DNA of 55,071 bases from Candidatus Pacearchaeota archaeon (GTDB lineage Archaea; Nanobdellota; Nanobdellia; Pacearchaeales; GW2011-AR1). The notes beneath the pieces were generated by a model. It was not told the origin of the DNA. It ran no database searches and worked only from the letters and a program-made list of their open reading frames with translations. The position numbers and the translations under genes were made by a program. This document shows, one piece after another, positions 26,623-55,071 of this stretch. Location: contig JACOWL010000009.1 of assembly GCA_016176815.1 (NCBI GenBank), forward strand, positions 1 to 55,071, in the 5' to 3' direction. The number at the start of each line of letters is the position of its first letter. Within the stretch, counting starts at the first letter, position 1.

Positions 26623-27465
26623 ATGAAAATAGGTATAATTGGAATGGGTTTTGTTGGAGGAACGACCGCAAAAGTTTTAGAAAAAGTTCATGAAATTTTT
26701 CCTTATGATAAATACAAAAAACCATATACAAATCCTTCAATTTTAAAAAAATCTGAAGCCGTTTTCATTTCTGTCCCAACTCCAATGAAGCCGAGCGGAG
26801 AAATTGATTATTCTTCAATTAATAATTCTTTAGAGACTCTTTTAGAGAATACTTCTGAGCCAAGACCTTTAGTCGTCATAAGATCAACAGCAGTTTCAGG
26901 AACAACAGATAAGTTGGAGAAAAAATATCCATTTAATTTTGTATTCAATCCGGAATTTTTAAGAGAAAAACATGCGTTAGAAGATATGAAAAATACGGAT
27001 AGAATCATCATTGGAGCAAACAGGAAAAAAGACTGCAAAAAAGTAGAAGAAATTTATAGGCCTCTTTTTCCAAAAGCGAAATATATTTTTGTCGATAGAA
27101 AAACTGCAGAAATGATAAAATATGCTTCAAACGTTATGCTTGCCGGGCAAGTTGCTTTAGCGAATGAAATTTATCAGATTTGCAAATCTTCCGGGATAGA
27201 TTACAATAAAATAAAGGAAACTATTTTATTAGATAAGAGAATTGCCAGAAATATTGATGTTCCTGGTCCGGACGGAGAGTTTGGTTTTGGAGGAAAATGT
27301 TTTCCAAAAGATCTTAATGCTCTTATTTATCTGTCAAGAGAAAAAATGTATCGGCCTTATTTACTTGAGGAGATTTGGAGATTGAATGAAAAAATAAGAA
27401 AAAATAAAGACTGGTTGGAAATTCCGGGAGCAACATCAAGGAATAATAATTTTAAGAAGAAATGA
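26623..27465 (+). CDS. UDP-glucose/GDP-mannose dehydrogenase family protein, short form (no C-terminal domain)
   Basis: 'IGIIGMGFVGG', 'NPEFLREK', 'GGKCFPKDL' catalytic-Cys motif. Only 280 aa. Confidence 0.7.
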   Translation: MKIGIIGMGFVGGTTAKVLEKVHEIFPYDKYKKPYTNPSILKKSEAVFISVPTPMKPSGEIDYSSINNSLETLLENTSEPRPLVVIRSTAVSGTTDKLEKKYPFNFVFNPEFLREKHALEDMKNTDRIIIGANRKKDCKKVEEIYRPLFPKAKYIFVDRKTAEMIKYASNVMLAGQVALANEIYQICKSSGIDYNKIKETILLDKRIARNIDVPGPDGEFGFGGKCFPKDLNALIYLSREKMYRPYLLEEIWRLNEKIRKNKDWLEIPGATSRNNNFKKK

Positions 27466-27986
27466 AAATTGGCATAGATATAGATGGAGTAATTAGGAAT
27501 TGGGCCGGTAAACTTTCTGAAATATATTTTAGGGAAAATCCCGTACATAAACAAATTAGAAATGATACTTATGATGTTGGTTGTTGGTTTCCAATAGGAA
27601 AAGAAATTTATAAATTTGGTTTTGAGGTTCATGCAGAAGAAATTTATACTGAAGCGCAAGTATATCCTGAAGCAAAAGAATTTTTAAAAAAATTACATAA
27701 AGATGATGAATTGGTTTTTGTAACCCATCAGCCAAATAAAAATTTAGAATACTTGACAATTAAATGGATAAATAAAAATGAGTTACCTCACGATTGTATT
27801 CTATTCACAAAAGATAAATCAAAATTTAAAGGCGATTATTTACTTGACGACTATACTAAAAATTTACAGAGAATATCTATGGTGAGAAATAGCATTCCAA
27901 TTTGTTTTAACCAGCCTTGGAATCAAGATTGGAATGGTCAAAGAGTAAATTCTTATGATAAATTTTTGGAGATAATAAATAAATAA
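27462..27986 (+). CDS. HAD-type 5'(3')-deoxyribonucleotidase-like phosphatase
   Basis: 'IGIDIDGVI' motif I. Size and 'LLDDY' motif. Confidence 0.5.
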   Translation: MKIGIDIDGVIRNWAGKLSEIYFRENPVHKQIRNDTYDVGCWFPIGKEIYKFGFEVHAEEIYTEAQVYPEAKEFLKKLHKDDELVFVTHQPNKNLEYLTIKWINKNELPHDCILFTKDKSKFKGDYLLDDYTKNLQRISMVRNSIPICFNQPWNQDWNGQRVNSYDKFLEIINK

Positions 27987-27987
27987 A

Positions 27988-28446
27988 ATGCTTCCAAAAT
28001 ATCATCTTGTTTTAGGATTTTTGTTTTCATTAGTTTTATTTATATTTTTTCCTTTTATTAGTCTGTTGGGATTTTTAATAATCTTTGCGTCTTCAGTTTT
28101 AATTGATGTTGACCACTATTTGTATTATGTTTTTAAAAATAAAATTTTCAGCATTAACAAAGCATATAATTCTTTTTTTGAACAGAGAAAAAAATTACTT
28201 GCAAAAAGTTTGGAAGAAAAAAGAACAAAAATTGCAAATCCTTTAATGTACCTTTTTCATGGAATAGAAGTTTTATTAATTATTTTTATTCTTGGAATTT
28301 TCGTAAATAAAATCTTTTTATTTATTTTTATTGGATTTAGTTTTCATTTATTTTTGGATATAGTTGAACAGATTTATTATGGGTTTAGAATTGCTAAAGT
28401 TTCTTTAATTTTTGATTTTGTTAAAAAAATTAATGAAAAATTTTAA
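27988..28446 (+). CDS. Membrane protein, DUF457/YdjM-like putative metal-dependent hydrolase
   Basis: 'KYHLVLGFL' and 'LIDVDHYLY' motifs. 4 hydrophobic segments. Confidence 0.4.
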   Translation: MLPKYHLVLGFLFSLVLFIFFPFISLLGFLIIFASSVLIDVDHYLYYVFKNKIFSINKAYNSFFEQRKKLLAKSLEEKRTKIANPLMYLFHGIEVLLIIFILGIFVNKIFLFIFIGFSFHLFLDIVEQIYYGFRIAKVSLIFDFVKKINEKF

Positions 28447-28494
28447 TTTTTCTTTAGTGTATGATTTTATAAAGTTAAGAACTTAATTCTTTTT

Positions 28495-29838
28495 ATGTTA
28501 AAAAAAGGAAGAGTGTTTATTAAAGAAGAAGAAAAAGACATAAAAAATATTTATAGAAGATTTTGGAAAAGAGATTTTTCCGGAAATACTGGTCAGGCAA
28601 TTAAAAATAGTACATATAGTTTTTCAACAACTCTTGTTCAAAAAATAGGCGCAATAATATTTACAATAATAATTGCGAGATTATTAATGCCGGAACTTTT
28701 TGGATTATACTCTCTTGCTCTTACAACCATAGGGATTTTTGCAGTTATTTCGGATTTGGGAATTAGTTCAACTTTAATTAGATTTCTTTCAAAAGAACTT
28801 GCTAAAAAGAAACCAAATACTCGAGGTTATTACAATTATTTATTAAAGATAAAATTTCTCTTAACTTTATTTGCTTCTTTAATTTTAATTTTATCATCCT
28901 ATTGGATAGCAAATCTCTATTATAATAAGCCAATTTTTTATGCTCTTTTAGCTGGAGGGCTATATCTTTTCATAACGAGTTTTTTGGGTTTTTTTGGATC
29001 AATTTACCAATCATTTAATAATTTTAAAAAATCTTTAGTAATGGAATCTATTTTTCAAGTATCAAGATTAATCATTATTCCTTTAATTATAGTTTTTTCT
29101 TTAAAATTTTCTGATAATATATTATTGTTAAATATTATTTTAGGACTTTCTTTTTGTTATTTGATTGCTTTAATCTTTTTATTTATTAAAAAGCCAATTT
29201 TATTGGGAAAAGAATTAGATAAAAAACAAAAAAAACAAATAAATAAATTTATATTGCCTTTAACTGCAACTGCTATTTCTGGAGCTTTTTTTATAAGTAT
29301 TGATAAAATTATACTTGGTCATTTTGTTAGCGCAGAATTTATCGGTTATTATGCTGCCGCTTTTTCTTTAATAGGGGCCGTAATGGGTTTTTTAAGTTTT
29401 TCAGGAGCTTTATTTCCTATTTTTTCTAGATTAAGGGGGAAAAAATTAGAAAGAGGTTTTAGAAAATCTATTCAAATGATTTTACCGGCTTCTTTTATTA
29501 TAATTTTAATAACTCTTATTTTTTCGCCGTTAATAATTAAAATTATTTATGGCGCGCAGTATTCTTTATCTATTAATCTTTTAAGAGTATTATCTATATT
29601 GATAATTTCGGAACCTATAGCCGCAGTTTATTCAAATTATTATATTTCAATAGGAAAAACTGGAAAAATGGTAAAATTATTAATTTCAACAGCTATATTG
29701 AATATAATCTTAAATTATATTTTAATTGTTGCATTGTTGCCAATGGGAAATTTAGCTGCAGTTTTTGGAGCAATTATTGCAACATTAATTAGCAGATATC
29801 TTTTTTTATTTGGACTTATTATTTTTAGAAGAAAATAA
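28495..29838 (+). CDS. Polysaccharide flippase (Wzx/MOP superfamily)
   Basis: 447 aa, about 12 hydrophobic segments, glycan-cluster context. Confidence 0.65.
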   Translation: MLKKGRVFIKEEEKDIKNIYRRFWKRDFSGNTGQAIKNSTYSFSTTLVQKIGAIIFTIIIARLLMPELFGLYSLALTTIGIFAVISDLGISSTLIRFLSKELAKKKPNTRGYYNYLLKIKFLLTLFASLILILSSYWIANLYYNKPIFYALLAGGLYLFITSFLGFFGSIYQSFNNFKKSLVMESIFQVSRLIIIPLIIVFSLKFSDNILLLNIILGLSFCYLIALIFLFIKKPILLGKELDKKQKKQINKFILPLTATAISGAFFISIDKIILGHFVSAEFIGYYAAAFSLIGAVMGFLSFSGALFPIFSRLRGKKLERGFRKSIQMILPASFIIILITLIFSPLIIKIIYGAQYSLSINLLRVLSILIISEPIAAVYSNYYISIGKTGKMVKLLISTAILNIILNYILIVALLPMGNLAAVFGAIIATLISRYLFLFGLIIFRRK

Positions 29839-29839: not shown

Positions 29840-30364
29840 TTATTCGCAATCATATAATTCTCTTTTTTCTATGATTAAAACAGGATTTTCAAATTTTTTT
29901 ACTTCATTATAACATTCTAAAATTTGTTTTGAATTTAATGGCTCATAAACTGGAAAACTAACAATTTTTTTGAAGATTTCTGTATAATTTTGAGTGTGTT
30001 GTACTCCTGGCATTAATGGTTTTTTTGAACCAATGGTAGCCCTAATAATTACAGGAGTTTTAAATTGTCCATAAGACATTTTTTCAATTTTGTCTAAATG
30101 ATTAACAATAGCATCTAAGCTATTAAGCATAAAATCATGTCTTTCAAAGAAAACTAGGGGTTTATATCCTTCTAAGGAAATTCCAATTGCTAAACCAATC
30201 ATTAAATTTTCTGCTACGGGAGTCTCAATGCATTTCTCTTTCGGGATATCGCTTAAAGTGCCATAAGCTCTTGAGCCATAATTTATATTATACCCTAAAA
30301 ATCTTACTTTGTCCAACTTTGCAAGTTCTTCCATAGATTTTTTTATCGCATCTTTGTATTTCAT
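29840..30364 (-). CDS. E1-beta-like TPP enzyme subunit, Pyr domain only (174 aa)
   Basis: 'AIKKSMEELAKLDKVRFLGYN...CIETPVAENLMIGLAIGISLEGYKPL' follows the E1-beta N-terminal pattern. The C-terminal domain is absent. Confidence 0.65.
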   Translation of the reverse strand: MKYKDAIKKSMEELAKLDKVRFLGYNINYGSRAYGTLSDIPKEKCIETPVAENLMIGLAIGISLEGYKPLVFFERHDFMLNSLDAIVNHLDKIEKMSYGQFKTPVIIRATIGSKKPLMPGVQHTQNYTEIFKKIVSFPVYEPLNSKQILECYNEVKKFENPVLIIEKRELYDCE

Positions 30365-30388: not shown

Positions 30389-31012
30389 TTAAAATGAATT
30401 TTTAATTTCAGTTCCCGAAAAATTTACAAATTTTTCTGTTCCTACATGCAGGGAAGTTGATTTATACGAATATCTCTTAACGCATTTCGGCCATTCCATT
30501 TTTGATTTTCCATATCTATCTGATTTTGGAGTTTCAACAGATCTATCATTATCTTCAACTATAAATGTACAAGGCAAATCCCATCCATCAACATACCTCA
30601 CAGCTTCGTAAAAATGTCCCTCGTCTTCCACACCATCTCCTCCAAAACACCAAACTTTTCTTTTACTGCCTTGATTTTTTAAAGCATATGCAGTTCCTGC
30701 AGCAATGCAAGACACTCCAGCAACAATAGCCGAAGTAAAAAAATTAATTTCTTTGTCAAAAACATACATGCTATCCCCCCTCAAAATCATTTTTTCAAGT
30801 TTTTCAGGAGAGCCGCCTTTAAGCAAATAATGATAATGAGAACGGTGATTTGAAAAAACATAGTCTTCAGGATTAATCTTTTTAAAAATTTCAATTAAAG
30901 GCTCTTCATTTCCACCCGAAAAATGTACGGGATATGGAATTTTTGCGTCTTCCCATAATCTTTTTATTTTATTTTCAAATTCAATTAATTTTTCTTTTGT
31001 TATTTTTTCCAT
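30389..31012 (-). CDS. E1-alpha-like TPP-binding subunit, short (207 aa)
   Basis: 'HRSHYHYLLKGG' and 'GGDGVEDEGHFYEAVRYVDGWDLPCTFIVEDNDRS' is the GDG...NN TPP motif. Confidence 0.65.
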   Translation of the reverse strand: MEKITKEKLIEFENKIKRLWEDAKIPYPVHFSGGNEEPLIEIFKKINPEDYVFSNHRSHYHYLLKGGSPEKLEKMILRGDSMYVFDKEINFFTSAIVAGVSCIAAGTAYALKNQGSKRKVWCFGGDGVEDEGHFYEAVRYVDGWDLPCTFIVEDNDRSVETPKSDRYGKSKMEWPKCVKRYSYKSTSLHVGTEKFVNFSGTEIKNSF

Positions 31013-31137: not shown

Positions 31138-31193
31138 AAATTATCACAAGAAGATTTTTAAATCTCTTAATTTTTGTCGGTGATACAATGAAA
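31138..31193 (+). promoter_or_regulatory. 56-nt promoter/leader box, copy 1 (53/56 identical to 40530-40585), runs into the ATG
   Basis: AAATTATCACAAGAAGATTTTTAAATCTCTTAATTTTTGTCGGTGATACAATGAAA. Contains the TATA-like TTTTTAAAT about 30 nt before the ATG. Confidence 0.65.
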
Positions 31194-32285
31194 GTAAAAT
31201 TTTCATATTTAGAAGAACAATTCAAGAATCCTGAACCAATTTTTAAAGATATAAAAAAGTTAGTGAAGAGTGGCGATTTTACTCTTGGGAAAGAGGTTTT
31301 TGAATTTGAAAAACAATTTGCAAAACTTTGTCAAACCAAATATGCGGTAGGAGTAGGCACAGGAACAGATGCGATTAGATTAAGTCTTATTGCTTTGAAT
31401 GTTGGATCAGGCGATGAGGTTATAACTGTTCCAAATACTTTTTATTCTACGGTTGAAGCAATTGTGACTGCTGGAGCAAAGCCAGTTTTTGTTGACGCTG
31501 ATGATGACTATAATATAAATCCTAATTTAATTGAAAAGGCAATAACAAAAAAAACAAAAGCAATTTTGCCGGTTCATCTTTATGGTTGTCCAGCTAAAAT
31601 ACCTGAAATTATAAAAATTGCTAACAAACATAATCTTTTAATTATTGAAGATGCTTGTCAGGCGATAAATTCTGCAATAAATAAAAAGAAAGCTGGCTCT
31701 TTTGGAATTACAGGATGTTTTTCACTGCATCCATTAAAGGGAATTAATGTTTGGGGGGATGGCGGAATTATTACAACAAATTCCCAAGAAGTCAGAGACA
31801 AACTTTACATGCTAAGAAATAATGGGCTCAAAAACAGGGACGAATGCGCAATATACTCTTATAATTGCAGGCTCGATACTCTGCAGGCAATTGTTGCTTT
31901 ACATGTAATAAAAGATATTGACTGGATAACAAACAAAAGAATTGAAAATGCAAAATTTTACGACGAAGAACTTTCAAAATTTTCTCAAATACTAATTCCA
32001 GAAAGAGCAAGAAATGTAAAACAAGTTTATCATACTTATGTTGTAAAAGCGGAAAACAGAGACGAACTTTATAATTTTTTATTGAAAAGCGAAATTGAAG
32101 CAAAAATTCATTATCCTGTTCCATTGCACTTGCAAGAAGCAAGCAAATATCTTAATTATAAAAAAGGAGATTTTCCAAAAACTGAAGAGCAGGTAAAATC
32201 GATAATAACGCTTCCAGCCCATCAGCATTTAAAAAAAGGACAGCTGGAATATGTTGTCAAAAAAATAAAGGAATTCTACAAATGA
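31188..32285 (+). CDS. DegT/DnrJ/EryC1/StrS-family sugar aminotransferase
   Basis: 'GTGTDAI', 'DEVITVPNTF', 'FSLHPLKGIN' PLP-lysine region. Confidence 0.85.
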   Translation: MKVKFSYLEEQFKNPEPIFKDIKKLVKSGDFTLGKEVFEFEKQFAKLCQTKYAVGVGTGTDAIRLSLIALNVGSGDEVITVPNTFYSTVEAIVTAGAKPVFVDADDDYNINPNLIEKAITKKTKAILPVHLYGCPAKIPEIIKIANKHNLLIIEDACQAINSAINKKKAGSFGITGCFSLHPLKGINVWGDGGIITTNSQEVRDKLYMLRNNGLKNRDECAIYSYNCRLDTLQAIVALHVIKDIDWITNKRIENAKFYDEELSKFSQILIPERARNVKQVYHTYVVKAENRDELYNFLLKSEIEAKIHYPVPLHLQEASKYLNYKKGDFPKTEEQVKSIITLPAHQHLKKGQLEYVVKKIKEFYK

Positions 32286-33385
32286 ACAAAATCTTAGTTA
32301 AATATATAAATTTTCCTCTTCAATATAAAAAAATAAAAAAAGAATTGCTTGGGACTATTGAAAACGTTTTTGAATCCGGCAATTTTGTGCTTGGTCCAGA
32401 AGTAGAAAAATTTGAGAAAAATTTTGCTAAATCTTGCCAAACTAAATATGCTCTTGGAGTTGGAGATGGAACAAGCGCGCTATTTTTAGTGATGAAAGCG
32501 CTTGGAATTGGAACTGGAGATGAAGTCATAACCGTTCCTAATTCTTTTATCGCAACTGCTGGTGCAATAGCGGCAACAGGAGCAAAACCAGTTTTTGTTG
32601 ACGCTGACGATGATTATAACATAAATCCTCGTTTAATTGAAGAAGCGATAACAAAAAAAACAAAAGCAATTCTACCAGTTCATCTTACTGGAAGACCTGC
32701 AAATTTAGATAAGATTTTAGAAATTTCAGATAAAAATAAAATTTATTTAATTGAAGATGCTGCTCAGGCTGTTGGCGCAAAATATAATGGAAAAAAAGTA
32801 GGTTCTTTTGGAATTGCCGGTTGTTTTAGTTTGCATCCGCTTAAGAATTTAAATGCTTATGGAGATAGCGGAATAATAACAACTCAAGATAAACAACTTT
32901 ATGAAAATTTAAAAAAAATGCGCAATCATGGTCTCAAAAACAGAGATGAATGTGATTTTTTTGCTTTCAATTCAAGACTGGATGAGTTGCAAGCAGCAAT
33001 GCTTAATGTTAAAATGAAATATTTAGACAAATGGACAAAAAGAAAGCGTGAAATAGCGTCATTTTATCAAAAAAAACTTTCTGACATTATAAAAGTTCCG
33101 CTTGATAAACCAAATGAAGAGGCAGTCTATCATACATTTATAATTCAAGCAAACAAAAGAGATGATTTACAAAAGTTTTTGTTGCAAAAAGGAATTGAAA
33201 CAAAAATCCATTATCCAATTCCGATTCATTTGCAAAAAGCAGCTCAATATCTTGGCTATAAAAAAGGAGATTTTCCAAAGACAGAAGAACAAACAAAAAA
33301 AATACTTAGTTTGCCAATATATCCCGAACTTAAAAAAGAGCAATTGGAACTTGTTGTAAATGAAATAAGAAAATTTTATTCTTAA
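32282..33385 (+). CDS. DegT-family sugar aminotransferase (tandem paralog)
   Basis: Same motifs ('DEVITVPNSF', 'FSLHPLKNLN'). Long nearly identical nucleotide patches with the upstream gene. Confidence 0.85.
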   Translation: MNKILVKYINFPLQYKKIKKELLGTIENVFESGNFVLGPEVEKFEKNFAKSCQTKYALGVGDGTSALFLVMKALGIGTGDEVITVPNSFIATAGAIAATGAKPVFVDADDDYNINPRLIEEAITKKTKAILPVHLTGRPANLDKILEISDKNKIYLIEDAAQAVGAKYNGKKVGSFGIAGCFSLHPLKNLNAYGDSGIITTQDKQLYENLKKMRNHGLKNRDECDFFAFNSRLDELQAAMLNVKMKYLDKWTKRKREIASFYQKKLSDIIKVPLDKPNEEAVYHTFIIQANKRDDLQKFLLQKGIETKIHYPIPIHLQKAAQYLGYKKGDFPKTEEQTKKILSLPIYPELKKEQLELVVNEIRKFYS

Positions 33386-34650
33386 ACAAAATTAACATGC
33401 ATCGGTGTTTTTTTTCCAGAAACATCTTGAAGAGGGATATTTTTTTCCCTAAGATCAAACAAAACTTCATTTACTTTATCTTGCAAACATAATGTCCCGC
33501 ATCTATGTCTTGGATCAAATTTATCCGAACCTAAATAACCCATTACTTCCCAATATCTATCGCTTGCCCAAATATCTTTAAATCGTTGTTGAGAAAAATT
33601 GCCGATATGAAAATTTTTATAATCCGTGTGAAAAAACATTCCGCATGGCGCTACAAGACATGTGCCGGAGGTTTGTAATAGAATTGGCGGTCCAAAACAT
33701 TTCGAATATCTTCTATCTCTGCCTGTTCTGATTTTTGACCATTTTGCCTGCGTTGAATAATCTTTTGTTGAAAGCGCTTCAGCTATTTTTAAGAGTCCCA
33801 GAGCCTCTGGAGTTTTGTACCAATTATAATCAACTCCAAGCCTGCCATTTTCATCATCACTGCAGTGTTTTATAATTGTGTAATCAATTCCAATATTTCT
33901 TCCAAGAAGAGCTAAAGGAATAATTTGATCTGCGCATTCTGGAAGCAAAACCATTTGCGCTCCGATTGTTACATCAAAATTATTTTCTTTTTTTATTTTG
34001 ACGCATTCTTTCATTGTATCAATTACTTTATGAAAATTTTTTTCATTAGTCCCCATAATTTTTGCATATGCTTCAGGTTCTCCAGCAGAAATATTAAAAC
34101 GAAGATATGTCAATTCAGAGAGCAGCTCTTCAAGTTTCTCGCGTTTTAATGCCTGCCCATTAGTTCCAGATGCCATATCAAATCCATTTTGTTTTCCTTT
34201 TTTTACAAAATCATAAAAATGAGGATTTAAAGTGCTTTCACCATCGCTAACAAGGCTTATTGCTTTTACTCCTTCTCCGGTTTTATGCCCTATTTCAACG
34301 CAATCATCAAGAAAATTAGAATAAACCTCCCATGTCGCCGGAGAATCTGGATTGAACTGCAAGCCAGCATAACAATAAGTGCAGGCATATTGGCATTTTT
34401 GAGTAAGCGCCATATCTATTGTAATAGGCGCAATTTTTTCTCCTCTAAACCAGGCATCTACCCTATCTTTATGAAAAGCGATTTTTGTTGTATCGAGATT
34501 AAATTTTTCTCTTGGATTTATATCAAAATTTAGCAGAGGTTTTATGCGCTCAATATCACTTTTTATTTTTTCCCAATTTGTAGTTTGATTAGAACCATTG
34601 TTGCTAATCTCATATTTTCCTTCAAGCAATTGAGATAATTCGGTTTCCAT
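33382..34650 (-). CDS. Radical SAM enzyme with a Cys-rich C-terminal region
   Basis: 'CQYACTYC' CX3CX2C motif. Additional Cys motifs 'HCSDDENG', 'TCLVAPCG', 'RCGTLC'. Confidence 0.7.
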   Translation of the reverse strand: METELSQLLEGKYEISNNGSNQTTNWEKIKSDIERIKPLLNFDINPREKFNLDTTKIAFHKDRVDAWFRGEKIAPITIDMALTQKCQYACTYCYAGLQFNPDSPATWEVYSNFLDDCVEIGHKTGEGVKAISLVSDGESTLNPHFYDFVKKGKQNGFDMASGTNGQALKREKLEELLSELTYLRFNISAGEPEAYAKIMGTNEKNFHKVIDTMKECVKIKKENNFDVTIGAQMVLLPECADQIIPLALLGRNIGIDYTIIKHCSDDENGRLGVDYNWYKTPEALGLLKIAEALSTKDYSTQAKWSKIRTGRDRRYSKCFGPPILLQTSGTCLVAPCGMFFHTDYKNFHIGNFSQQRFKDIWASDRYWEVMGYLGSDKFDPRHRCGTLCLQDKVNEVLFDLREKNIPLQDVSGKKTPMHVNFV

Positions 34651-34716: not shown

Positions 34717-35088
34717 ATGAAACAAATTCCAAACATTTTAGAGAAGACGGGCATAAGCAGAGATTATATTTTAGCATTTGGGAGCATAGATAATTATATT
34801 AGAAGAATAGAAAAAAAAGAAGAATTTAGATGGATAAGATTAGCTGAAAATTCTTATCTCAATCGACCAATTCTTAAATATGAAGCATACTTTAGTCAGG
34901 CAGAATATGAACAAGTTGTTACAGATAAAAATCGTGAAATAATAAAAAATCTTGATAGACTTGTAGAAGAGGTAAATAAAATGAGAGAGAATAAACAAAA
35001 AGATTATGAAAAGCTTTCTAAATTATGGAAAAAAGCAAAAGAAATTATTTTTGGTAAGGCGCAAGAACTTTTAGAAGACAAAATTTAA
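34717..35088 (+). CDS. Hypothetical protein
   Basis: ORF only. Confidence 0.35.
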   Translation: MKQIPNILEKTGISRDYILAFGSIDNYIRRIEKKEEFRWIRLAENSYLNRPILKYEAYFSQAEYEQVVTDKNREIIKNLDRLVEEVNKMRENKQKDYEKLSKLWKKAKEIIFGKAQELLEDKI

Positions 35089-36300: not shown

Positions 36301-37299
36301 TCATTTCAAATTAATCTCCTGCATAAGTTTAATATTATGATATAATGGATTAGACAGCCCATCTTTTATCAAGCCGTTATTATATGCCTCAACAAGACTT
36401 TGCACAGCATTTTCTAATGTATATTTTGGTTCAAAATTCAAAATGCGTTTTATTTTATCAGAATTAATATGATAAGACCTCATATCTGTCGTAGGAAGAT
36501 ATTCAAATTCAAGAGAATTATCATCAATAACACCTTTTACTATTTTAGCAATATCCTCTACAGATTTATTTTGATATCCGATGTTAAAGATTTCTTTGTT
36601 AATTTTTTCTCCTGGCGCTTCCAAAATAATTTCATATGCTTTTACCATATCTTTTATATTTATATTTGGTCTAAGCTGTTTTCCTCCAAAAATTTTTATT
36701 TTTTTATTTATCAGAGCATTCAGCGTCAATATATTTACAGTCAAATCTATTCTTAAACGCGGAGCATAACCACATACTGTTGCAGGTCTTGCTATAACGC
36801 ATTCTAGACCATTGAAATTTGAGTTTAGTAAAACTTTTTCACATTCAAGTTTGTATTTTGAGTAATCTGTCAAAGGTTCAGGAGAAGTTTCTTCTGTAAC
36901 ATTTTTTTCTTTTTTCACTCCATAAACGCTGGAAGAACTGACATAAATAACTCTTTTAACATTATTTTTTTCTGCAGCTTCTAAAACATTAAAAAAAGCA
37001 TCATAATTTATAGATTTTCCAAGCGTAGGATTAAGTTCATAGCTTGGATCATTTGAAATACATGCTAAATGCAGAATCGCGTCTGAATTTTTTGCAGATT
37101 CTATTAATTTTTTTTTGTCTCTGATGTCTCCTCTTATTTGATTTAAATTTGGATTGCTTTTTAAATCAGAGAAAATCTCTCCATACAAATATAAATCATA
37201 AACAGAAACATTATAATCTTTTTTCAAGAGGTTTGGGACTAGGGCGCTGCCAACATAACCCGCCCCTCCCGTAATAAAAATATTTTTGAATTGTGTCAT
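36301..37299 (-). CDS. NAD-dependent epimerase/dehydratase (SDR); candidate heptose 6-epimerase by position
   Basis: 'ITGGAGYVGSAL', 'YSKYK' YxxxK motif. Confidence 0.7.
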   Translation of the reverse strand: MTQFKNIFITGGAGYVGSALVPNLLKKDYNVSVYDLYLYGEIFSDLKSNPNLNQIRGDIRDKKKLIESAKNSDAILHLACISNDPSYELNPTLGKSINYDAFFNVLEAAEKNNVKRVIYVSSSSVYGVKKEKNVTEETSPEPLTDYSKYKLECEKVLLNSNFNGLECVIARPATVCGYAPRLRIDLTVNILTLNALINKKIKIFGGKQLRPNINIKDMVKAYEIILEAPGEKINKEIFNIGYQNKSVEDIAKIVKGVIDDNSLEFEYLPTTDMRSYHINSDKIKRILNFEPKYTLENAVQSLVEAYNNGLIKDGLSNPLYHNIKLMQEINLK

Positions 37300-47514: not shown

Positions 47515-48129
47515 ATGATTTATCAATATAAAAATATAAAAATGCATTATGAACCAAATCTTGACGGAGGAGGGAGAGAATGCTATCCTGAATTTTTAAG
47601 AATAATAAAAGAAAAAATAGGAAAGGTAAATAGCGCATTTGAATTTTGCGCTGGAACAGCTTTTATTGGTTTTTCATTATTAGCAGATAAAATTTGTGAA
47701 AAATTAACATTAGCAGATATAGAAAAAGAGTCTGTTGAATGTTGCAACAAAACTATAAAAGAAAATAATTTAGAAGATAGAGTATTTGCATATCATTCTA
47801 ATTGTTTAAAACAAATACCGAATCAAAAATGGGATTTAGTAGTTGGCAATCCTCCTCACTTTTCAGAACCTCAAGCCAATCTGCCCCAAACAACTATAAT
47901 CAATGTAGATAAAAATTGGGATATTCATAGAAGTTTTTATACAAATGTTAGCAAATATTTAAAACCAAATGGTTCAATACTTCTTGTGGAAAATGGTCGA
48001 GGTTCTAGCCCAGAAGTTTTTTATGATATGATTGAAAAAAATGGATTAAGGGTTGCAGACGTCATTAAATGTAATTTAAATAGACCTTCAAAATTTTATT
48101 TTATGCTGGTTCAGAAAAATAAATTATAA
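47515..48129 (+). CDS. Class I SAM-dependent methyltransferase with an NPPH/NPPY-type motif
   Basis: 'FEFCAGTAFIG', 'VVGNPPHF'. Confidence 0.65.
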   Translation: MIYQYKNIKMHYEPNLDGGGRECYPEFLRIIKEKIGKVNSAFEFCAGTAFIGFSLLADKICEKLTLADIEKESVECCNKTIKENNLEDRVFAYHSNCLKQIPNQKWDLVVGNPPHFSEPQANLPQTTIINVDKNWDIHRSFYTNVSKYLKPNGSILLVENGRGSSPEVFYDMIEKNGLRVADVIKCNLNRPSKFYFMLVQKNKL

Positions 48130-48156
48130 TAACAAAAATATTTTTTATTTATTTTG
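48043..48156 (+). repeat. Copy 1 of a ~110-bp repeat (3' end of the methyltransferase gene plus downstream flank)
   Basis: Aligns by eye at roughly 85-90% with 50483-50589. Confidence 0.8.
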
Positions 48157-48267: not shown

Positions 48268-48798
48268 TTACTTTTTTTCTAATAAATATTCTTTTCCTAA
48301 ATTAACCACTTCTGTTAAATTTCTAACATTTTTGAAATTAGCACCCCCGAAGTAAGAACCCTTAAGGTAGGCCCCCTCGAAGTTAGCGCCCTCTAAGTTA
48401 GCACTCCTGAAGTTAGCAATCCAGAGATCAGCATTAACGAAGCAAGCGTCCTTGAGATTAGCCCCCTTGAAGTTAACATTTCCGAGGTTAGCGCTCTCGA
48501 AGTTAGCGCCATCAAATTTAGCGCTCTCGAAGTTAGCGCCTCGGAGATTGACATTTCTTCCAACTGTGAAGGGCAAATATAATTCTCTTGCTCTTAAATA
48601 TCGAAATTGGGAATTACTAATATCAACAGGCGTCTTTTGTAAATCTTGTGTTTTCAAATATGTTTTTAATTCTTGAAATGATCCATGCCCGCTTAAATCA
48701 AATCTTTCTTCAAGAAATATTTTAGAAAAATCTCTTTCTCCACCTAATAGTTTTACTATAAATTCTTCTCCTGAAACTTTGGTTAAAATTTCTGCCAT
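48268..48798 (-). CDS. Pentapeptide-repeat protein
   Basis: 'GANFESAKFDGANFESANLGNVNFKGANLKDACFVNADLWIANFRSANLEGANFEGAYLKGSYFGGANF'. Start moved to the internal 'MAEILTK', because the upstream 39 codons look like AT-rich promoter sequence. Locally GC-rich. Confidence 0.8.
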   Translation of the reverse strand: MAEILTKVSGEEFIVKLLGGERDFSKIFLEERFDLSGHGSFQELKTYLKTQDLQKTPVDISNSQFRYLRARELYLPFTVGRNVNLRGANFESAKFDGANFESANLGNVNFKGANLKDACFVNADLWIANFRSANLEGANFEGAYLKGSYFGGANFKNVRNLTEVVNLGKEYLLEKK

Positions 48799-50489: not shown

Positions 50490-50589
50490 GAATTGCAGAT
50501 GTTCTTAAGTGTAATTTAAACAGGCCTTCAAAATTTTATTTTATGTTGGTTAAGAAAAATAATAAAAAAAATATTTTTTATTTATTTTG
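50483..50589 (+). repeat. Copy 2 of the ~110-bp repeat: orphan remnant of a methyltransferase 3' end
   Basis: Would encode GLRIADVLKCNLNRPSKFYFMLVKKN, compared with GLRVADVIKCNLNRPSKFYFMLVQKN in 47515..48129. Confidence 0.8.
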
Positions 50590-51537
50590 TTTGCCTTTGA
50601 TAAATCCATTTATAGCGCCGATTGTCTGGATCATCAATATAAATATTCCGATGAATGGATATAAAAATAAACCCGGAAGCCATTTTGTTCTGATAAAAGG
50701 ATAAATAGTTTGCATTATTGAAGCAAGAAAAAATGGCAAAAGAAAAAATAAACTTATTATTGGATTAATAAACAAACTAATTAAAAATCCAAGCAGAAAT
50801 AAAATGCGTATTTCAAAATCAAATAACCCTATTCTTCTAAGCAGACCGTATTCTCTTTTAATAGCTCCATGCGCCTCGCCATAACGCTGTTCTTTTTTTA
50901 GCGCGCTTGAAAACTTGCTGTTTTTATCATAATGCACATGAATAATTTTATCTTCTACGCGTTCTAATTTATATCCCTGTTTTTTTATTCTAACATGCAT
51001 ATCACAATCTTCTCCTGCAAACGCGTAATTTTTGGGATTGAAAAGACCAACTTTATCAAATACTTCTTTTTTGTAATTTCCTCCGCCATATTGTGGTTTT
51101 GAAATATGCCTGAATGTAAGCAACCTTATAAGGAAAGGATATTTTTGCCAGGCTTTCACAGGCCAGACAATAGGAGAGACAACACATCCTATTTTATCGT
51201 CTGAATAAAGTTTTTTTATGACGTTGCTGAGCCAACTTTTATTTTCAGGAAAATAATCTCTGCAAAGAATTGAGACAACTTGTGTTTTTGAAGCTTTGAT
51301 GCCTAAATTGAGGCTCTCTGAAATTCCTTTGTTTATCGGATTATTTATTAATTTAATTTTATTAGCTTTAATGAATTTAAGCATTGAATCCGAAGGTTTT
51401 GAATTTGGATTGTCATTAACGACGATGATTTCCATTTTAGGATAATCCTGTTTAAGAATATGCCTTAGAGCTTCTTCACTTTTGTCAATCTCAAATGTAG
51501 GCATGATTATTGTAACGGAGATTTTTTTGTTTGTCAT
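50578..51537 (-). CDS. Family 2 glycosyltransferase with a C-terminal TM region
   Basis: 'VTIIMPTF', 'VNDNPNS', 'AGEDCDMHVR'. Confidence 0.75.
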   Translation of the reverse strand: MTNKKISVTIIMPTFEIDKSEEALRHILKQDYPKMEIIVVNDNPNSKPSDSMLKFIKANKIKLINNPINKGISESLNLGIKASKTQVVSILCRDYFPENKSWLSNVIKKLYSDDKIGCVVSPIVWPVKAWQKYPFLIRLLTFRHISKPQYGGGNYKKEVFDKVGLFNPKNYAFAGEDCDMHVRIKKQGYKLERVEDKIIHVHYDKNSKFSSALKKEQRYGEAHGAIKREYGLLRRIGLFDFEIRILFLLGFLISLFINPIISLFFLLPFFLASIMQTIYPFIRTKWLPGLFLYPFIGIFILMIQTIGAINGFIKGKQNK

Positions 51538-51996: not shown

Positions 51997-52719
51997 ATGA
52001 TAGATATAGTTACAGGAAGAAGTAAAAAATTGCAGTTTTTTATTAATTTGATTCCAAAAAATTTTAGATTAATTTTTAATCCAAACAGGCGATGCATTGA
52101 AAAGTTTATTGAGAGAAGCGCCAAAAAAATGGAAAAAGGCGCTAAAATTTTAGATGCAGGAGCGGGGCCCTGTCCATATAAAAAATTATTTTCACATTGC
52201 GATTATGAAGCAACTGATTTTATAGATAAGTATAAAATTCTTGATTTTGTATGTCAGTTAGATAATATTCCTAAAAAGAAAGAGAGTTATGACGCTATAC
52301 TCTGCACAGAAGTTTTAGAGCATGTAGAATATCCTCAAAAAGTTCTTAATGAACTTTATAGGGTATTAAAAAAAGATGGAAAATTATTTTTGACTCTTCC
52401 GCAAGGATGGATGATTCATCAGGAGCCTTATAACTTTTATTATTTTACTAAATACGGGCTTGCAAGTTTATTAAAAAATTCAGGATTTAAGGAATTTAAA
52501 ATCATTCCAAAAGGAGGATATTTTTGGTTTTTAGCAGACGCTATTAGATTTAATGGAATTGCTCAGCAATATAAAAAATATCCTTTGATATATTATCCCT
52601 TAAAAATTTTAGGATTTCCTTTTACTTCAATAATATTTCCATTTATTTTATTTTACTTGGATTTTTTAGACAAAGAAAAGAAATGGACAATGGGTTATGT
52701 AATTGAAGCTAAAAAATAA
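51997..52719 (+). CDS. Class I SAM-dependent methyltransferase with a C-terminal hydrophobic tail
   Basis: 'ILDAGAGPCPY', 'DAILCTEVLEHV', 'LKKDGKLFLT'. Confidence 0.75.
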   Translation: MIDIVTGRSKKLQFFINLIPKNFRLIFNPNRRCIEKFIERSAKKMEKGAKILDAGAGPCPYKKLFSHCDYEATDFIDKYKILDFVCQLDNIPKKKESYDAILCTEVLEHVEYPQKVLNELYRVLKKDGKLFLTLPQGWMIHQEPYNFYYFTKYGLASLLKNSGFKEFKIIPKGGYFWFLADAIRFNGIAQQYKKYPLIYYPLKILGFPFTSIIFPFILFYLDFLDKEKKWTMGYVIEAKK

Positions 52720-52748: not shown

Positions 52749-53552
52749 TTAAATCGTCTGCTTCCCGCTCAAAAAACCTTTCCAAAATCCGTAAAGATAA
52801 TAAAAATGATCTAAGAAAGAGCTTAATATATAAACTGGAAATAATTTTGTTTCTTTCTTATTAAATGGAAAAGAAAAAATTGTTGCAACTATTCCAAATA
52901 TGGGAATTGCTTTTATTAAAAAAGAATGCCACCCGCGCATTCTCAAACCATAAATTCTAAAAATTGTTCCTCCTCCGTTGGCATACTGGCGGGTTTTTTT
53001 TAATCTTTTTATATAAGTTGTTGGATGATAGTGCAATATTTCTGCTTTTGGATAAGCAATTAACCCCTTGTTTTTTATTTTCATATATAAGTCTAAATCT
53101 TCCCCGCCTGTTTTAAAAGTTTTTTCATCAAAATAATTAACTGATTTTAAAATGCTTTTTCTGTATGCGCCGCCTTTTCCGTCTAACAGGGAAGTTATCA
53201 CTCCTTTTTCTTTTATGTTGGCCGCTTTAGCAAATATACTCAAATTTTTCCAGATAAAATCCGGAAGGCGAATTTTAGAAACAGAAGCAATTACCTTTTT
53301 ATTCTCAAATGGTTCAACTAAATTTTTTAACCAATATTTATTTGCAGGAATGCAATCCTGCGGCAGCTCAACAACAATTTCATATTTTGATTTCTTTACA
53401 CCAAGATTTATTTGTTTTGCAAAACCCATATTTTCTTCTATTTTTAATATTTCAATTTTTCCATTGAATTTTTGTTCTTTTACTGCTTGAATAAGTTTTT
53501 TCAGCACATTTCTGTCTGGGTTAAATATTGGGATGATAACTGAAACATTCAT
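52749..53552 (-). CDS. Family 2 glycosyltransferase with a C-terminal TM region
   Basis: 'VSVIIPIFNP', 'GGEDLDLYMK'. Confidence 0.75.
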   Translation of the reverse strand: MNVSVIIPIFNPDRNVLKKLIQAVKEQKFNGKIEILKIEENMGFAKQINLGVKKSKYEIVVELPQDCIPANKYWLKNLVEPFENKKVIASVSKIRLPDFIWKNLSIFAKAANIKEKGVITSLLDGKGGAYRKSILKSVNYFDEKTFKTGGEDLDLYMKIKNKGLIAYPKAEILHYHPTTYIKRLKKTRQYANGGGTIFRIYGLRMRGWHSFLIKAIPIFGIVATIFSFPFNKKETKLFPVYILSSFLDHFYYLYGFWKGFLSGKQTI

Positions 53553-53684
53553 TAATTTTTGATATTTTTCTAGTTTAAGTCTTTTTCGTTTAGAAAAAGC
53601 TTATGCGAAAAATTTACCATTTTTCTTTTTAGAAGCGATTATTTGCATTTTTTAATTCTTCAAAATCGTAGATTTTGACAAGAT

Positions 53685-54116
53685 TTAACTTAAATATTTC
53701 TTGATGAAGATTTTGTGGGCAGAAACTATCTTCCTCGGCGGTTTTTTGAAAAATTTTATTTCATCTGCCTGCCAGCTTCCCTTTATTTTTCCTGATTTCT
53801 TTTTTACCAAAAAAGCCAAACTAATGGGGTGACCAAAGATCTCTTTTTTCTGGGGAAATTCTATAATTCCTAAAAGTTTAACGATTTCTACATTTAAGTT
53901 AATTTCTTCTTTAGCAGTTCTTTTTACAGCTTGTTTCAGTGTTTCACCGAAGAGAACACCGCTCCCGGGAAAATGCCATCTTCCTTTTGAAGGCGGAATT
54001 AATCTCTTCGTCAATAATACGCCGTCTTTTGTTTTCAGAATTACTTCAACGCACAATCTCGGAACTTGACTATAAATCCAGCTAAATTTTTTCTGAGAAA
54101 TTTTTCTAGGAGTCAT
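53685..54116 (-). CDS. Nudix hydrolase (GDP-mannose mannosyl hydrolase-like size)
   Basis: Nudix box 'GSGVLFGETLKQAVKRTAKEEINL'. Confidence 0.75.
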   Translation of the reverse strand: MTPRKISQKKFSWIYSQVPRLCVEVILKTKDGVLLTKRLIPPSKGRWHFPGSGVLFGETLKQAVKRTAKEEINLNVEIVKLLGIIEFPQKKEIFGHPISLAFLVKKKSGKIKGSWQADEIKFFKKPPRKIVSAHKIFIKKYLS

Positions 54117-54150
54117 GAAAATTTTTAGTCAAAGAAACTTTAAAAAGGTT

Positions 54151-54929
54151 TTATTTTTTATAAAAGTCTATTGTTTTTTTTATTCCTTCTTCTAATGATA
54201 CTCTTGGAGTCCAACCGAGTTTTTTCAGCTCTGAATTATCGCAGACGAAATCAACGATTCCAACGTTTTTATGAAAATCCGGAGGAGTTATTGCTTTAAC
54301 TTTTGTATTCGGAATTTGTTCCTTTATAATATCTATTAATTTTCTGAATTTTGTGAATTCTCCTCTTCCAACATAATAGGTTTTATTTGTCTTTCCTTTT
54401 TCTGCAATAGTTCTGCAAGCATCTGCAACATCGTCGACATAAATATAATCTCTAATAAAATTTCCATTATTATAAAGTTGAATTTCTTCGCCCTTTACAG
54501 CTTGGTTTATCATAAAATTAAATCCTGCCTTTTTTTTATTATTTCCATCTTCAAATGGACCAAAGACATTAGTAAATCTGGCAATTATTACATCCAAATT
54601 AAAAACATTATGATAAATATGGCAAAAATGTTCTGCAGCAAGTCTTGTAGCCGGATATAAACCTTGAGGATTGCAGGGAGAATCTGCATTAACAGGGAGT
54701 TTATCCGCATTGCCGTTGACAAAAAAAGTGCTTCCAAAAATAATTCTTGCTTTAGGATTATATTTTTTGCATGCTTCTAATAGAGCAATTGTTCCATTGC
54801 AGTTTATTTCTATATCTTTATACGGCTCGCCTTCTTTGATAGCATAATTATCAACAGTTCCCGCTAAATGAAAAATATAATCTTTATCAGCAACGTCGCT
54901 TTTTTTTATATTTCTTACATCTTTTACCT
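54151..54929 (-). pseudogene. NAD-dependent epimerase/dehydratase lacking its N-terminal Rossmann (GxxGxxG) segment
   Basis: The frame is open from 54929 ('VKDVRNIKKSDVADKDYIFHLAGTVDNYA...YPATRLAAEH...') with no start codon before the TTG at 54597. It is preceded by in-frame TAG codons, and no glycine-rich loop is present. Confidence 0.6.
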
Positions 54930-55071
54930 AAAAATTTTTCTAATATATTATAATAATCTTTTTTTTGATTTTCAGGCATACCCCAGCATGGAATAAAGAG
55001 TGATCTTTTTTCAATATCGTCGCCAATTGGGAAAATTCCTTTGTTGAGGGAAAGCCATTCTGCTCTTTCAA
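54887..55071 (-). CDS. 3' end of an unidentified ORF running off the window edge
   Basis: Open frame '...ERAEWLSLNKGIFPIGDDIEKRSLFIPCWGMPENQKKDYYNILEKFLGKRCKKYKKKRRC*'. It overlaps the truncated SDR frame by about 40 nt. Confidence 0.3.
   Translation of the reverse strand, partial: ERAEWLSLNKGIFPIGDDIEKRSLFIPCWGMPENQKKDYYNILEKFLGKRCKKYKKKRRC

Follow-up and report, generated by a model that had tools for sequence, protein, structure and literature searches.

The 55,071-nt contig JACOWL010000009.1 (GenBank assembly GCA_016176815.1, Candidatus Pacearchaeota archaeon), analysed here at its full length and called the window, falls into two parts. Upstream of position 26,623 it carries mostly archaeal housekeeping genes; from there to its end, all but a few of the sizeable open reading frames (ORFs) belong to sugar metabolism. 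Between 26,623 and 55,071, Pfam and NCBIfam profile scans covering all ORFs of 120 amino acids or more bear out an original prediction, made from the sequence alone, that about half of the window is a dense glycan-biosynthesis island. Nearly the whole of the predicted gene list was recovered (Table 1): three DegT aminotransferases, a carbamoyltransferase, two B12-binding and one further radical S-adenosylmethionine (SAM) enzyme, an E1-alpha/beta-like thiamine diphosphate (ThDP) pair, two methyltransferases, two Nudix hydrolases, a short UDP-glucose dehydrogenase (UGDH), three glycosyltransferases (GTs) and a Wzx flippase, along with a nucleoside diphosphate (NDP)-heptose pathway. The list had left out an NT5C nucleotidase, a pentapeptide-repeat gene and two conserved hypothetical proteins (152 and 123 aa), and of its “four intact and one truncated” short-chain dehydrogenases/reductases (SDRs) the truncated one was found, but only three intact ones. 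As predicted, the island continues beyond the window: other assemblies extend it by at least 10 kb, to a total of at least 38 kb.

Table 1. Features of the island, in order of position in the window. AR19, archaeon GW2011_AR19; NTase, nucleotidyltransferase; TM, transmembrane.
Feature	Coordinates	Strand	Basis and remarks
UGDH-short, short UDP-glucose/NDP-sugar dehydrogenase, 280 aa	26623..27465	+	Pfam N-terminal and central domains only
NT5C-type (HAD) 5'-nucleotidase	27462..27986	+	PF06941, 60 bits; absent from AR19 locus
152-aa membrane protein, 4 TM-like segments	27988..28446	+	Hydropathy; no Pfam/NCBIfam match
Wzx-type (MOP) flippase, 12 TM-like segments	28495..29838	+	Polysacc_synt, 90 bits; hydropathy; 87% identical in AR19
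Mini-E1 beta, 174 aa, Pyr domain only	29840..30364	-	Transket_pyr, 43 bits
Mini-E1 alpha, 207 aa, PP domain only	30389..31012	-	E1_dh, 65 bits, positions 6-171 of 300
DegT1, sugar aminotransferase	31188..32285	+	PF01041, 336 bits; catalytic Lys in FSLHPLK
DegT2, sugar aminotransferase	32282..33385	+	Catalytic Lys retained; 57% identical to DegT1
Radical SAM/SPASM enzyme, cassette signature	33382..34650	-	Pfam; CxxxCxxC
123-aa partner protein, no Cys, no known domain	34717..35088	+	Adjoins radical SAM/SPASM gene
NTase-GmhB, NTase fused to GmhB-type HAD-IIIA phosphatase	35176..36273	-	rfaE_dom_II, 94 bits; GmhB, 58 bits
SDR332, Cj1427-like	36301..37299	-	Best solved homologue 6VO6/6VO8, E 1.3e-37
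HldE-type fusion, N-terminal heptose-1-P NTase and C-terminal heptose-7-P kinase	37301..38827	-	CTP_transf_like and PfkB
SDR336, GalE/WbpP-like (epimerase or oxidoreductase), core HldE partner	38824..39834	-	Profiles; in 73 of 81 HldE loci
GmhA-type sedoheptulose-7-P isomerase	39886..40455	-	SIS_2, 48 bits; TIGR00441 gmhA best match
GT1, GT-B (GT1/GT4-like) glycosyltransferase, first gene of second operon	40580..41719	+	Sub-gathering Pfam; precomputed Gtf3_C
SDR292, short SDR of the epimerase/dehydratase family, 292 aa	41765..42643	+	Profiles
Nudix hydrolase	42661..43080	+	PF00293, 52 bits
TobZ/NodU/GdmN-type O-carbamoyltransferase	43247..44956	+	Carbam_trans_N, 154 bits; Carbam_trans_C, 168 bits
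DegT3, aminotransferase	44959..46059	+	Catalytic Lys retained
B12-binding-domain radical SAM enzyme, 474 aa	46088..47512	+	PF02310, PF04055
MTS, HemK/MTS-type methyltransferase, NPPH motif	47515..48129	+	Profiles; 88% identical in AR19
115-bp direct repeat, left copy	48042..48156	+	85% identity between copies
Pentapeptide-repeat protein	48268..48798	-	Profile; gene callers give 176 aa
Second B12-binding-domain radical SAM enzyme, 464 aa	49095..50489	+	Profiles; 22% identical to the 474-aa enzyme
115-bp direct repeat, right copy	50482-50589		As left copy
GT2 glycosyltransferase, C-terminal TM-like segments	50578..51537	-	Profile, hydropathy
Class I SAM methyltransferase	51997..52719	+	Profiles
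GT2 glycosyltransferase	52749..53552	-	Profile
Second Nudix hydrolase	53685..54116	-	Profile
SDR, 5' end missing (~52 codons with the Rossmann motif; only in this assembly)	54151..54926	-	Profile, assembly comparison
Fourth DegT-family gene, 3' end (401 aa elsewhere)	54923..55071	-	His for catalytic Lys, SFYASHH

The Heptose Core and its Relatives

All four steps to an NDP-heptose are putatively encoded, in agreement with the original prediction: a GmhA-type isomerase, the kinase domain of an HldE-type fusion, a GmhB-type phosphatase, and the nucleotidyltransferase (NTase) domain of the same HldE. GmhA scores 97 bits against TIGR00441 (equivalog cut-off 209). HldE scores 171 bits against the HldE profile, 123 against rfaE_dom_I and 106 against rfaE_dom_II (all below cut-off), with the next kinase family at 40 bits. 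Its NTase domain has the HxGH motif, as HIGH. The order of its domains is reversed relative to E. coli HldE, an arrangement shared by thousands of homologues; the closest named ones are archaeal, from Naiadarchaeales, Thermoplasmatales, Heimdallarchaeota, and Methanocellales (60–70% identity), and many bacterial ones are ~50% identical. The phosphatase is fused to a second NTase domain. Its C-terminal half passes the HAD-SF-IIIA cut-off (51 bits against 44.6) and scores 58 bits against the GmhB profile PRK08942 (cut-off 178); the NTase half reads HPGQ where the family has HxGH, and may be catalytically altered or inactive. Two SDRs flank HldE. The best solved homologues of SDR332 score 133 bits, against 89 for the next solved match, and bear the name Cj1427 in their entry titles; Cj1427 is a GDP-heptose C4-dehydrogenase, with its chemistry described in PMC10680097. 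The predicted model of SDR332 was poor (predicted local distance difference test, pLDDT, 58.6), and its fold ranking was not used as structural evidence.

The best HldE locus found elsewhere is that of archaeon GW2011_AR19 (AR19; HldE 88% identical), which we take to belong to the Pacearchaeota; close homologues of island proteins are also labeled “Candidatus Pacearchaeota.” Synteny with AR19 runs for 20 kb, from secD through the 152-aa protein, Wzx, mini-E1 beta and alpha, DegT1, DegT2, the radical SAM enzyme, the 123-aa protein, SDR332, HldE, SDR336, GmhA, GT1, SDR292, Nudix, the carbamoyltransferase, and DegT3 to MTS. The 19 genes shared with AR19 have dN/dS ratios of 0.08–0.26 (secD, 0.09), the mark of purifying selection, and the island is therefore taken to be functional. 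UGDH-short and the NT5C gene, NTase-GmhB (which leaves AR19 without a GmhB within 20 kb), and the 474-aa B12 radical SAM enzyme are absent from AR19, and downstream of MTS the two loci are wholly different.

Further afield, a scan of species-representative genomes yielded 80 loci with a domain-swapped HldE; L017, a duplicate of the L019 contig, brings the count to 81. Counting tblastn matches that cover at least half of the query, SDR336 is found in 73 of the 81, SDR332 in 69, GmhA in 38, mini-E1 alpha in 31, mini-E1 beta in 19, DegT1 and DegT2 in 22–24, and the radical SAM/SPASM enzyme in 10. Many SDR336 matches are over 50% identical; many SDR matches are weak (~25–30% identity) and perhaps paralogues. 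Outside AR19, the DegT1 and DegT2 matches reach 63% identity, and those of the radical SAM/SPASM enzyme 75% (Undinarchaeota), 67% (Gemmataceae), and 55% (Thermoplasmatota). Subsets of the gene cassette recur beside the swapped HldE in Thermoplasmatota, Undinarchaeota, Verrucomicrobiota, Acidobacteriota, Planctomycetota, and others. Neighborhoods of the radical SAM/SPASM gene were collected from three long contigs and 80 metagenome loci. Among the 12 with full 10-kb flanks, HldE is present in nine, the mini-E1 pair and a B12 radical SAM gene in seven each, and the DegT pair in four.

The DegT Pair, a DesII-Like Radical SAM Enzyme, and its Small Partner

Internal duplications had been noted in the island. 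That of DegT1 and DegT2 is ancient rather than recent, each copy having an orthologue of its own: both are matched separately in a Thermoplasmatota locus (63% identity) and in a Verrucomicrobiota locus (56–63%). DegT1 orthologues are 51–63% identical across Thermoplasmatota and bacterial loci; those of DegT2 in L022 and L064 are 63% identical.

The adjoining radical SAM/SPASM enzyme has five invariant cysteines in addition to its CxxxCxxC motif, and therefore probably holds an auxiliary cluster. Some 5,900 homologues were found, with generic names only; the best 120 share 57% identity or more, and those named include both archaeal and bacterial proteins. It has no match among Protein Data Bank sequences at E < 0.01. 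Searched with Foldseek, an AlphaFold2 model (pLDDT 84.7) gave DesII as its top match (E 2.5e-13; TM-score 0.57–0.62 over 367–401 columns), followed by SuiB, SkfB, BlsE, anSME, and viperin (E 1e-10 to 1e-8). Against the DesII equivalog TIGR04426 the protein scores 30.7 bits, with a cut-off of 450.

Homologues of the Cys-free 123-aa protein lie beside the radical SAM gene in AR19 (82% identity), in a DPANN contig (L100, 43%), in Gemmataceae (39%), and in a metagenome contig (L099, 31%). It may be a partner, a chaperone, or even a substrate of the radical SAM/SPASM enzyme. A role as the precursor or recognition element of a RiPP-type system (a peptide made on ribosomes and modified after translation) is not favored, because the enzyme tracks heptose genes.

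A Miniature E1-Like Pair

The E1-alpha/beta-like pair of the original prediction is there, but in miniature. Mini-E1 alpha, in which the ThDP motif is intact (GGDG-X26-EDND), consists of the PP domain, and mini-E1 beta of the Pyr domain (positions 5–178 of 327 in the pyruvate dehydrogenase E1-beta profile); the pair falls short of a full-length E1, with an alpha subunit of ~320–370 aa and a beta subunit carrying Transketolase_C. The alpha family consists mostly of proteins of 195–230 aa (72 representative clusters at E ≤ 1e-30). It includes alpha-beta fusions (P0375, P0383), and the two subunits are therefore taken to act as one enzyme. Two alpha homologues (P0421, P0426) carry intein or LAGLIDADG insertions, and a third (P0371) has an APH-type kinase domain attached.

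Among characterized enzymes, the closest parallels lie in antibiotic sugar tailoring. ThDP enzymes place a C-4 acetyl branch on ketosugars, as has been shown for YerE and proposed for AviB1/AviB2 (PMC4753412). As with AviB1/AviB2, Pau11/Pau12, and YerE (PMC4753412), the island has an E1-like ThDP pair among sugar-tailoring genes and beside a ketosugar-forming SDR; unlike AviB1/AviB2, its subunits are about half size: alpha has nothing that corresponds to the C-terminal half of E1 alpha, and beta has no Transketolase_C domain.

Alternatively, the pair could be a minimal transketolase, either supplying sedoheptulose-7-phosphate to a host without a pentose-phosphate pathway or extending the sugar chain by a ketol unit, with tailoring left to the radical SAM enzymes. 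An Undinarchaeota homologue matches Transketolase_N and DXP_synthase_N besides E1_dh, and several others match DXP_synthase_N; the APH-type kinase fusion hints at phosphorylated substrates; and in several loci the pair is immediately beside HldE. Against this, its best matches, among profiles and in structure databases alike, are to E1 alpha and beta subunits, and the pair is missing from more than half of the HldE loci. Loci of Acidobacteriota, Verrucomicrobiota, and Chloroflexota likewise have it together with HldE. These phyla have normal pentose-phosphate pathways, so that a mini-E1 supplying the substrate would be unnecessary there. On these grounds we think a transketolase role unlikely, if far from fanciful.

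The Second Operon and a Variable Third Part

A 56-bp element, 95% identical in its two copies (31138..31193, +, and 40530–40585), lies directly upstream of, and includes, the ATGs of DegT1 and GT1, and so heads both the DegT1 and the GT1 operon. It carries a TTTTTAAAT box ~29 nt ahead of the start codon and has the appearance of one archaeal promoter used at both sites and giving leaderless or near-leaderless transcripts, which would imply co-regulation of the two plus-strand operons.

In the second operon, GT1 is 84% identical in AR19. The carbamoyltransferase combines a Kae1-like N-terminal and a YrdC-like C-terminal domain in one chain and matches GdmN, NovN, and TobZ from end to end (E 1e-49 to 1e-55); it does not reach the NodU equivalog cut-off (128 against 1000). 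DegT3 is 70% identical to its AR19 counterpart, with a dS of 0.88 against ~0.45 for its neighbors. Between DegT3 and MTS the window has the 474-aa B12 radical SAM enzyme; in AR19 this is absent and MTS directly follows DegT3. MTS itself, with its NPPH motif, is likely an N-methyltransferase.

The two B12 radical SAM enzymes score 54.2 and 51.5 bits against PF02310 (gathering threshold 32.1) and 67 and 54 bits against PF04055, and both have CxxxCxxC motifs (C212-C216-C219 and C226-C230-C233). Their best named families (P-methyltransferase, BchE, HpnJ) are all far below cut-off, and among solved structures they match well only the AprD4 core. By their domains they appear to be class-B-type enzymes; the reaction type is not readable from sequence. 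The class B family includes non-methylating members. The nearest named homologues of the 474-aa enzyme are from Nanoarchaeota and Pacearchaeota (50–57% identity), with bacterial ones at 46–49%. The original prediction had called B12-dependent enzymes remarkable in this genome: the class-B genes are indeed present, but homologues at 50–57% identity are common in Nanoarchaeota and Pacearchaeota genomes, and the enzymes are therefore a trait of the clade rather than a peculiarity.

Downstream of MTS, a 2.3-kb segment with the pentapeptide gene and the 464-aa B12 radical SAM gene is absent from AR19 and bracketed by a 115-bp direct repeat. The left copy consists of the 3' end of MTS and sequence downstream of it; the right one starts at the stop of the 464-aa enzyme. 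The arrangement is like an insertion or recombination footprint. The codon usage of the pentapeptide gene is the most atypical in the island (r 0.66; G+C at third codon positions, GC3, 0.31). With the three extra segments relative to AR19, the divergence after MTS, the repeat bracket, and this deviant codon usage, the predicted evolutionary fluidity of the island is thus supported.

The fourth DegT gene, cut by the window end, has His for the catalytic Lys in SFYASHH, as in ColD/E1-type 3-dehydratases. Past the window end follow the rest of this gene, a cupin, a 770-aa SDR-C-methyltransferase fusion, a GFO/IDH/MocA oxidoreductase, a GT2, a 496-aa protein, and a GT1-family glycosyltransferase. 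The 496-aa protein (L005 805–2295, ~7 kb past the window end) has an N-terminal hydrophobic segment, two Cys-rich repeats, long Ser/Thr/Asn tracts, and many NxS/T sequons, and no Pfam match. With a single N-terminal hydrophobic segment it looks secreted and is therefore not a polymerase; it is a candidate surface glycoprotein, and so a candidate acceptor, encoded inside the island.

At the other end, UGDH-short is without part of its NAD domain and the whole of its C-terminal domain (TIGR03026 positions 71–298 of 413). It is equally short in every assembly compared (three others), is absent at this position in AR19, and is probably a remnant. The 152-aa membrane protein is conserved beside secD, with 68% identity in AR19 and an unannotated 157-aa gene in the same place in L098.

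Assemblies, Composition, and Setting

The island is 100% identical to independently assembled contigs from at least seven sequencing runs (SRR12113383-433) and ~99.5% identical to a 44-kb contig of the metagenome-assembled genome (MAG) GCA_016180565.1. The truncated SDR, which had been taken for a scar, is an exception: at ~54,923 the window is missing 170 bp, comprising the upstream DegT gene stop and the first ~52 SDR codons, and four independently assembled contigs from other samples (L006–L009) have an intact 310-aa SDR at this junction. Similarly, secF (~24360) lacks 101 bp present in an independent contig (L013), with its 5' frame shifted, probably an assembly artifact like the first. 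A sufS gene (cysteine desulfurase, Aminotran_5; 9402–10536, -) is split into three ORFs matching profile positions 1–61, 94–197, and 202–371, with about 30 positions missing, and is either a pseudogene or the product of a ~100-bp assembly deletion and a frameshift. The NCBI MAG also carries local deletion(s) of its own. Local deletions of ~100–170 bp therefore seem to be a trait of the assemblies.

The whole window is AT-rich from end to end (~30% G+C), and the island does not differ in GC, GC3, or codon usage from the housekeeping genes upstream; on this ground a recent bacterial transfer of the island is rejected. The closest named relatives of HldE, the radical SAM/SPASM enzyme, and the B12 radical SAM enzyme are archaeal, and an ancient exchange of island genes between bacteria and archaea is evident.

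The upstream 26 kb includes genes for ribosomal proteins S9, L13, L18e, S13, S4, and S11, RNA polymerase subunit D, diphthamide and wyosine synthesis, and Suf iron-sulfur assembly, as well as four tRNAs, a lone 5S rRNA, secF, and secD. Further features were seen there. At 1291–5924 a serine recombinase lies in two pieces (Resolvase and Recombinase domains at 3920–4675, a Recombinase fragment at 5520–5924), with a HAD hydrolase gene between them and an HTH/DnaD-like gene close by, possibly the remnant of an integrated element. At 16349–16450 and 16831–16920 lie a 39-bp tandem duplication, which marks the start of a HEAT-repeat ORF, and the lone 5S rRNA gene, which is away from any 16S or 23S gene and near two tRNA genes. 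Just upstream of secF (23075–24164), an NTP_transf_2 nucleotidyltransferase gene is followed by a HEPN-domain gene, a toxin-antitoxin-like pair.

Surface Glycan or Natural Product

Several lines of evidence bear on what the island is for. As in agl loci, a flippase, glycosyltransferases, and sugar-tailoring genes are clustered, and vary between close relatives. In relatives, the same genes keep company with AglB/STT3- or PMT-type transferases. A Pacearchaeota contig of 856 kb has a rearranged version of the island at the same secD/secF-adjacent place, with a PMT/STT3-type GT-C enzyme; in an Undinarchaeota genome the cassette adjoins AglB/STT3; and STT3- or PMT-type genes are adjacent in L017, L098, and L100. 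Together, the Wzx flippase and glycosyltransferases, the position next to secDF, the synteny with AR19, the purifying selection, and these AglB/PMT neighbors make the island most likely the surface-glycan locus of its clade. We consider it likely, then, that this is a cell-surface glycan locus making a modified heptose, in a Pacearchaeota-type DPANN archaeon close to AR19. There is precedent for such products: the N-glycan of Thermoplasma acidophilum contains a heptose (PMC11407970), and capsules carry heavily modified ones (PMC10680097).

A number of observations weigh against this reading, or against its chemical details. AglB/STT3 was not found in the island, its extension, or the scanned ORFs upstream, a few upstream ORFs being unscanned. 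Neither an initiating phosphoglycosyltransferase nor Wzy is encoded in the window; Wzx is present, and in the window and extension there is no match to Wzy or Wzz families. The modified heptose itself has never been observed. All equivalog-level NCBIfam scores are below their curated cut-offs, as expected for divergent archaeal proteins, and assignments are at family level; the best family matches are unambiguous all the same. The (F/L)xxGRSTT motif (STTR5), which has been linked to nucleotide promiscuity (PMC11573728), was found by motif reading in neither NTase domain, and the second of these domains has HPGQ in place of HxGH. The match to DesII has a TM-score of only ~0.6, with SPASM peptide maturases close behind. 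To our knowledge, DesII does not have the extra conserved cysteines of the island enzyme. Only about one-third to one-half of the loci with the radical SAM gene also have the DegT pair, so that a DesI/DesII/DesV-type scheme is not general, and the mini-E1 pair would fit a transketolase-type role equally well.

The original prediction favored an aminoglycoside- or septacidin-like pathway over surface glycosylation. A secondary-metabolite cluster for a diffusible heptose compound of this kind would account for the families shared with antibiotic sugar tailoring: the TobZ/GdmN/NovN-like carbamoyltransferase, the class-B-type radical SAM enzymes, for which AprD4 is the nearest solved core, the DesII-like radical SAM enzyme, DegT, the AviB1/B2-like ThDP pair (PMC4753412), and, just past the window, the SDR-C-methyltransferase fusion. 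The septacidin and hygromycin B pathways (SepB/SepL/SepC, SepI, SepJ, SepA, SepG; PMC9978623) also start from an HldE/GmhA-type NDP-heptose, and in septacidin 4-oxidation is followed by 4-transamination to a heptosamine (PMC9978623), as would be the case for the island. In septacidin, however, oxidation is by a GMC oxidase using flavin adenine dinucleotide after transfer to adenine, and VOC and TIM-barrel epimerases take part (PMC9978623); in the island an SDR would take the place of this oxidase, presumably with the sugar nucleotide as its substrate, and the setting is one of flippase and glycosyltransferases. Pfam scans of island ORFs and the 10-kb extension found none of the septacidin GMC oxidase, VOC, and TIM epimerase families (PMC9978623), and no cyclitol, aglycone, or nucleobase-attachment genes or resistance/exporter genes. 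With the extension included, at least five glycosyltransferases accompany the Wzx flippase. The locus is syntenic and conserved at a housekeeping position in related Pacearchaeota, has cassette orthologues that adjoin AglB/PMT transferases, and encodes a candidate glycoprotein. The preference for a natural product is therefore not upheld, and we judge such a cluster improbable: the resemblance to antibiotic-sugar-tailoring families is real, and the context is a glycosylation locus. The contrary outcome that the prediction had itself named, a standard conserved glycosylation locus of the clade, describes part of what was found, namely a clade-conserved, secDF-adjacent glycosylation locus, but an elaborate and variable one.

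That the island is a decaying, largely non-functional remnant is scarcely credible: UGDH is truncated in all assemblies, an SDR in the window, and the second NTase has HPGQ for HxGH, but the remaining ORFs are all intact, without differences between at least seven samples, dN/dS relative to AR19 (0.08–0.26) is comparable to that of secD (0.09), and the SDR truncation, absent from four other assemblies and accompanied by ~100-bp deletions in secF and probably sufS, points to assembly noise.

Likeness to Known Systems and a Proposed Pathway

One close parallel is the capsular heptose pathway of Campylobacter jejuni (GmhA/HddA/GmhB/HddC, Cj1427, a C3-dehydratase, epimerases, and reductases; PMC10680097). 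Both start at sedoheptulose-7-phosphate; both have an SDR for C4 oxidation of the NDP-heptose, SDR332 being the closest relative of Cj1427 among solved structures; and both have a His-type pyridoxal phosphate-dependent C3-dehydratase, or in the island a homologue of one at the window edge. The C. jejuni product goes into a surface polysaccharide. Unlike HddA/HddC, the island activates its heptose by an HldE-type route (beta-anomer, cytidylyltransferase fold) with swapped domain order, and its two aminotransferases, radical SAM/SPASM, ThDP, and B12 radical SAM enzymes, and carbamoyltransferase are not found in the C. jejuni pathways.

For the tailoring genes, the desosamine enzymes DesI/DesII/DesV of Streptomyces venezuelae offer a model, in which a 4-keto sugar is aminated, a radical elimination follows, and the product is aminated again; the island likewise has two DegT genes beside a radical SAM enzyme whose best structural match is DesII. 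Unlike DesII, this enzyme has a SPASM/twitch-like Cys set, a 123-aa partner, and presumably a heptose substrate. In overall organization the island resembles agl loci and bacterial Wzx-dependent O-antigen and S-layer loci, which also cluster NDP-sugar genes, glycosyltransferases, and a Wzx/MOP flippase and vary in content between relatives; unlike these, it has no AglB, Wzy, or initiating transferase within the stretch examined. We know of no characterized agl pathway for which radical SAM, B12 radical SAM, or ThDP chemistry has been described, and in the literature we did not find the combination of a swapped HldE, a Cj1427-like SDR, a DesII-like radical SAM/SPASM enzyme with its partner, a mini-E1, and a B12 radical SAM enzyme.

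A pathway can be sketched from these parallels. Sedoheptulose-7-phosphate would be converted to NDP-D-glycero-manno-heptose, which the Cj1427-like SDR332 would oxidize at C4; the resulting 4-keto heptose would then be transaminated. The DesII-like radical enzyme could remove or rearrange a substituent, as in desosamine-type deoxygenation, or carry out an oxidation, and so permit a second transamination. Mini-E1 could take a two-carbon unit from pyruvate and place it on a keto carbon, in the manner of AviB1/B2 or YerE, or act as a transketolase. The DesII-type radical step and the two-carbon addition are each put forward tentatively, as the less expected outcome. Products of the second operon (GT1, SDR292, Nudix, carbamoyltransferase, DegT3, B12 radical SAM enzyme, MTS) might add carbamoyl, amino, and methyl groups and transfer the sugar. 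A further deoxy or branched/C-methyl sugar may come from the lineage-specific third part (B12 radical SAM enzyme, two GT2s, methyltransferase, Nudix, SDR), which the ColD-like dehydratase, cupin, SDR-C-methyltransferase fusion, GFO reductase, and GT2 of the extension would complete. Once flipped by Wzx, the lipid-linked product would be attached to proteins or lipids of the surface. As far as gene content allows a prediction, the sugar is probably an aminated, deoxygenated, and/or C-branched heptose.

Implications

The island is not the oddity of one genome: it gives a handle on a widespread heptose pathway of uncharacterized chemistry. What archaea do with NDP-heptose is an open question (PMC11573728), for which a look at conserved neighboring genes has been suggested; the island and ~160 related loci supply a conserved neighborhood that bears on it. 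It is conceivable, though we would not yet count on it, that the cassette (swapped HldE, Cj1427-like SDR, DesII-like radical SAM enzyme and 123-aa partner, and mini-E1, often with the DegT pair and a B12 radical SAM enzyme) makes an undescribed class of heptose-derived sugars. Members of this class would be aminated, deoxygenated, and/or furnished with a two-carbon branch or C-methyl group, possibly with nine carbons, and would be carried on the surface glycoconjugates of archaea, DPANN among them, and of many uncultivated bacterial phyla. The enzyme set is compact and strongly conserved, with the radical SAM/SPASM enzyme 67% identical to its Gemmataceae homologue, and is directly expressible and assayable.

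If no such class exists, the island nonetheless offers, in a reduced genome, a well-delimited case of a glycosylation locus that varies. If it does, it would explain why archaea make NDP-heptose at all; it would bring radical SAM, ThDP, and possibly cobalamin-dependent steps into ordinary surface-glycan biosynthesis; and it would mean that episymbiotic DPANN archaea display a new family of heptose derivatives on the surface that is their interface with the host.

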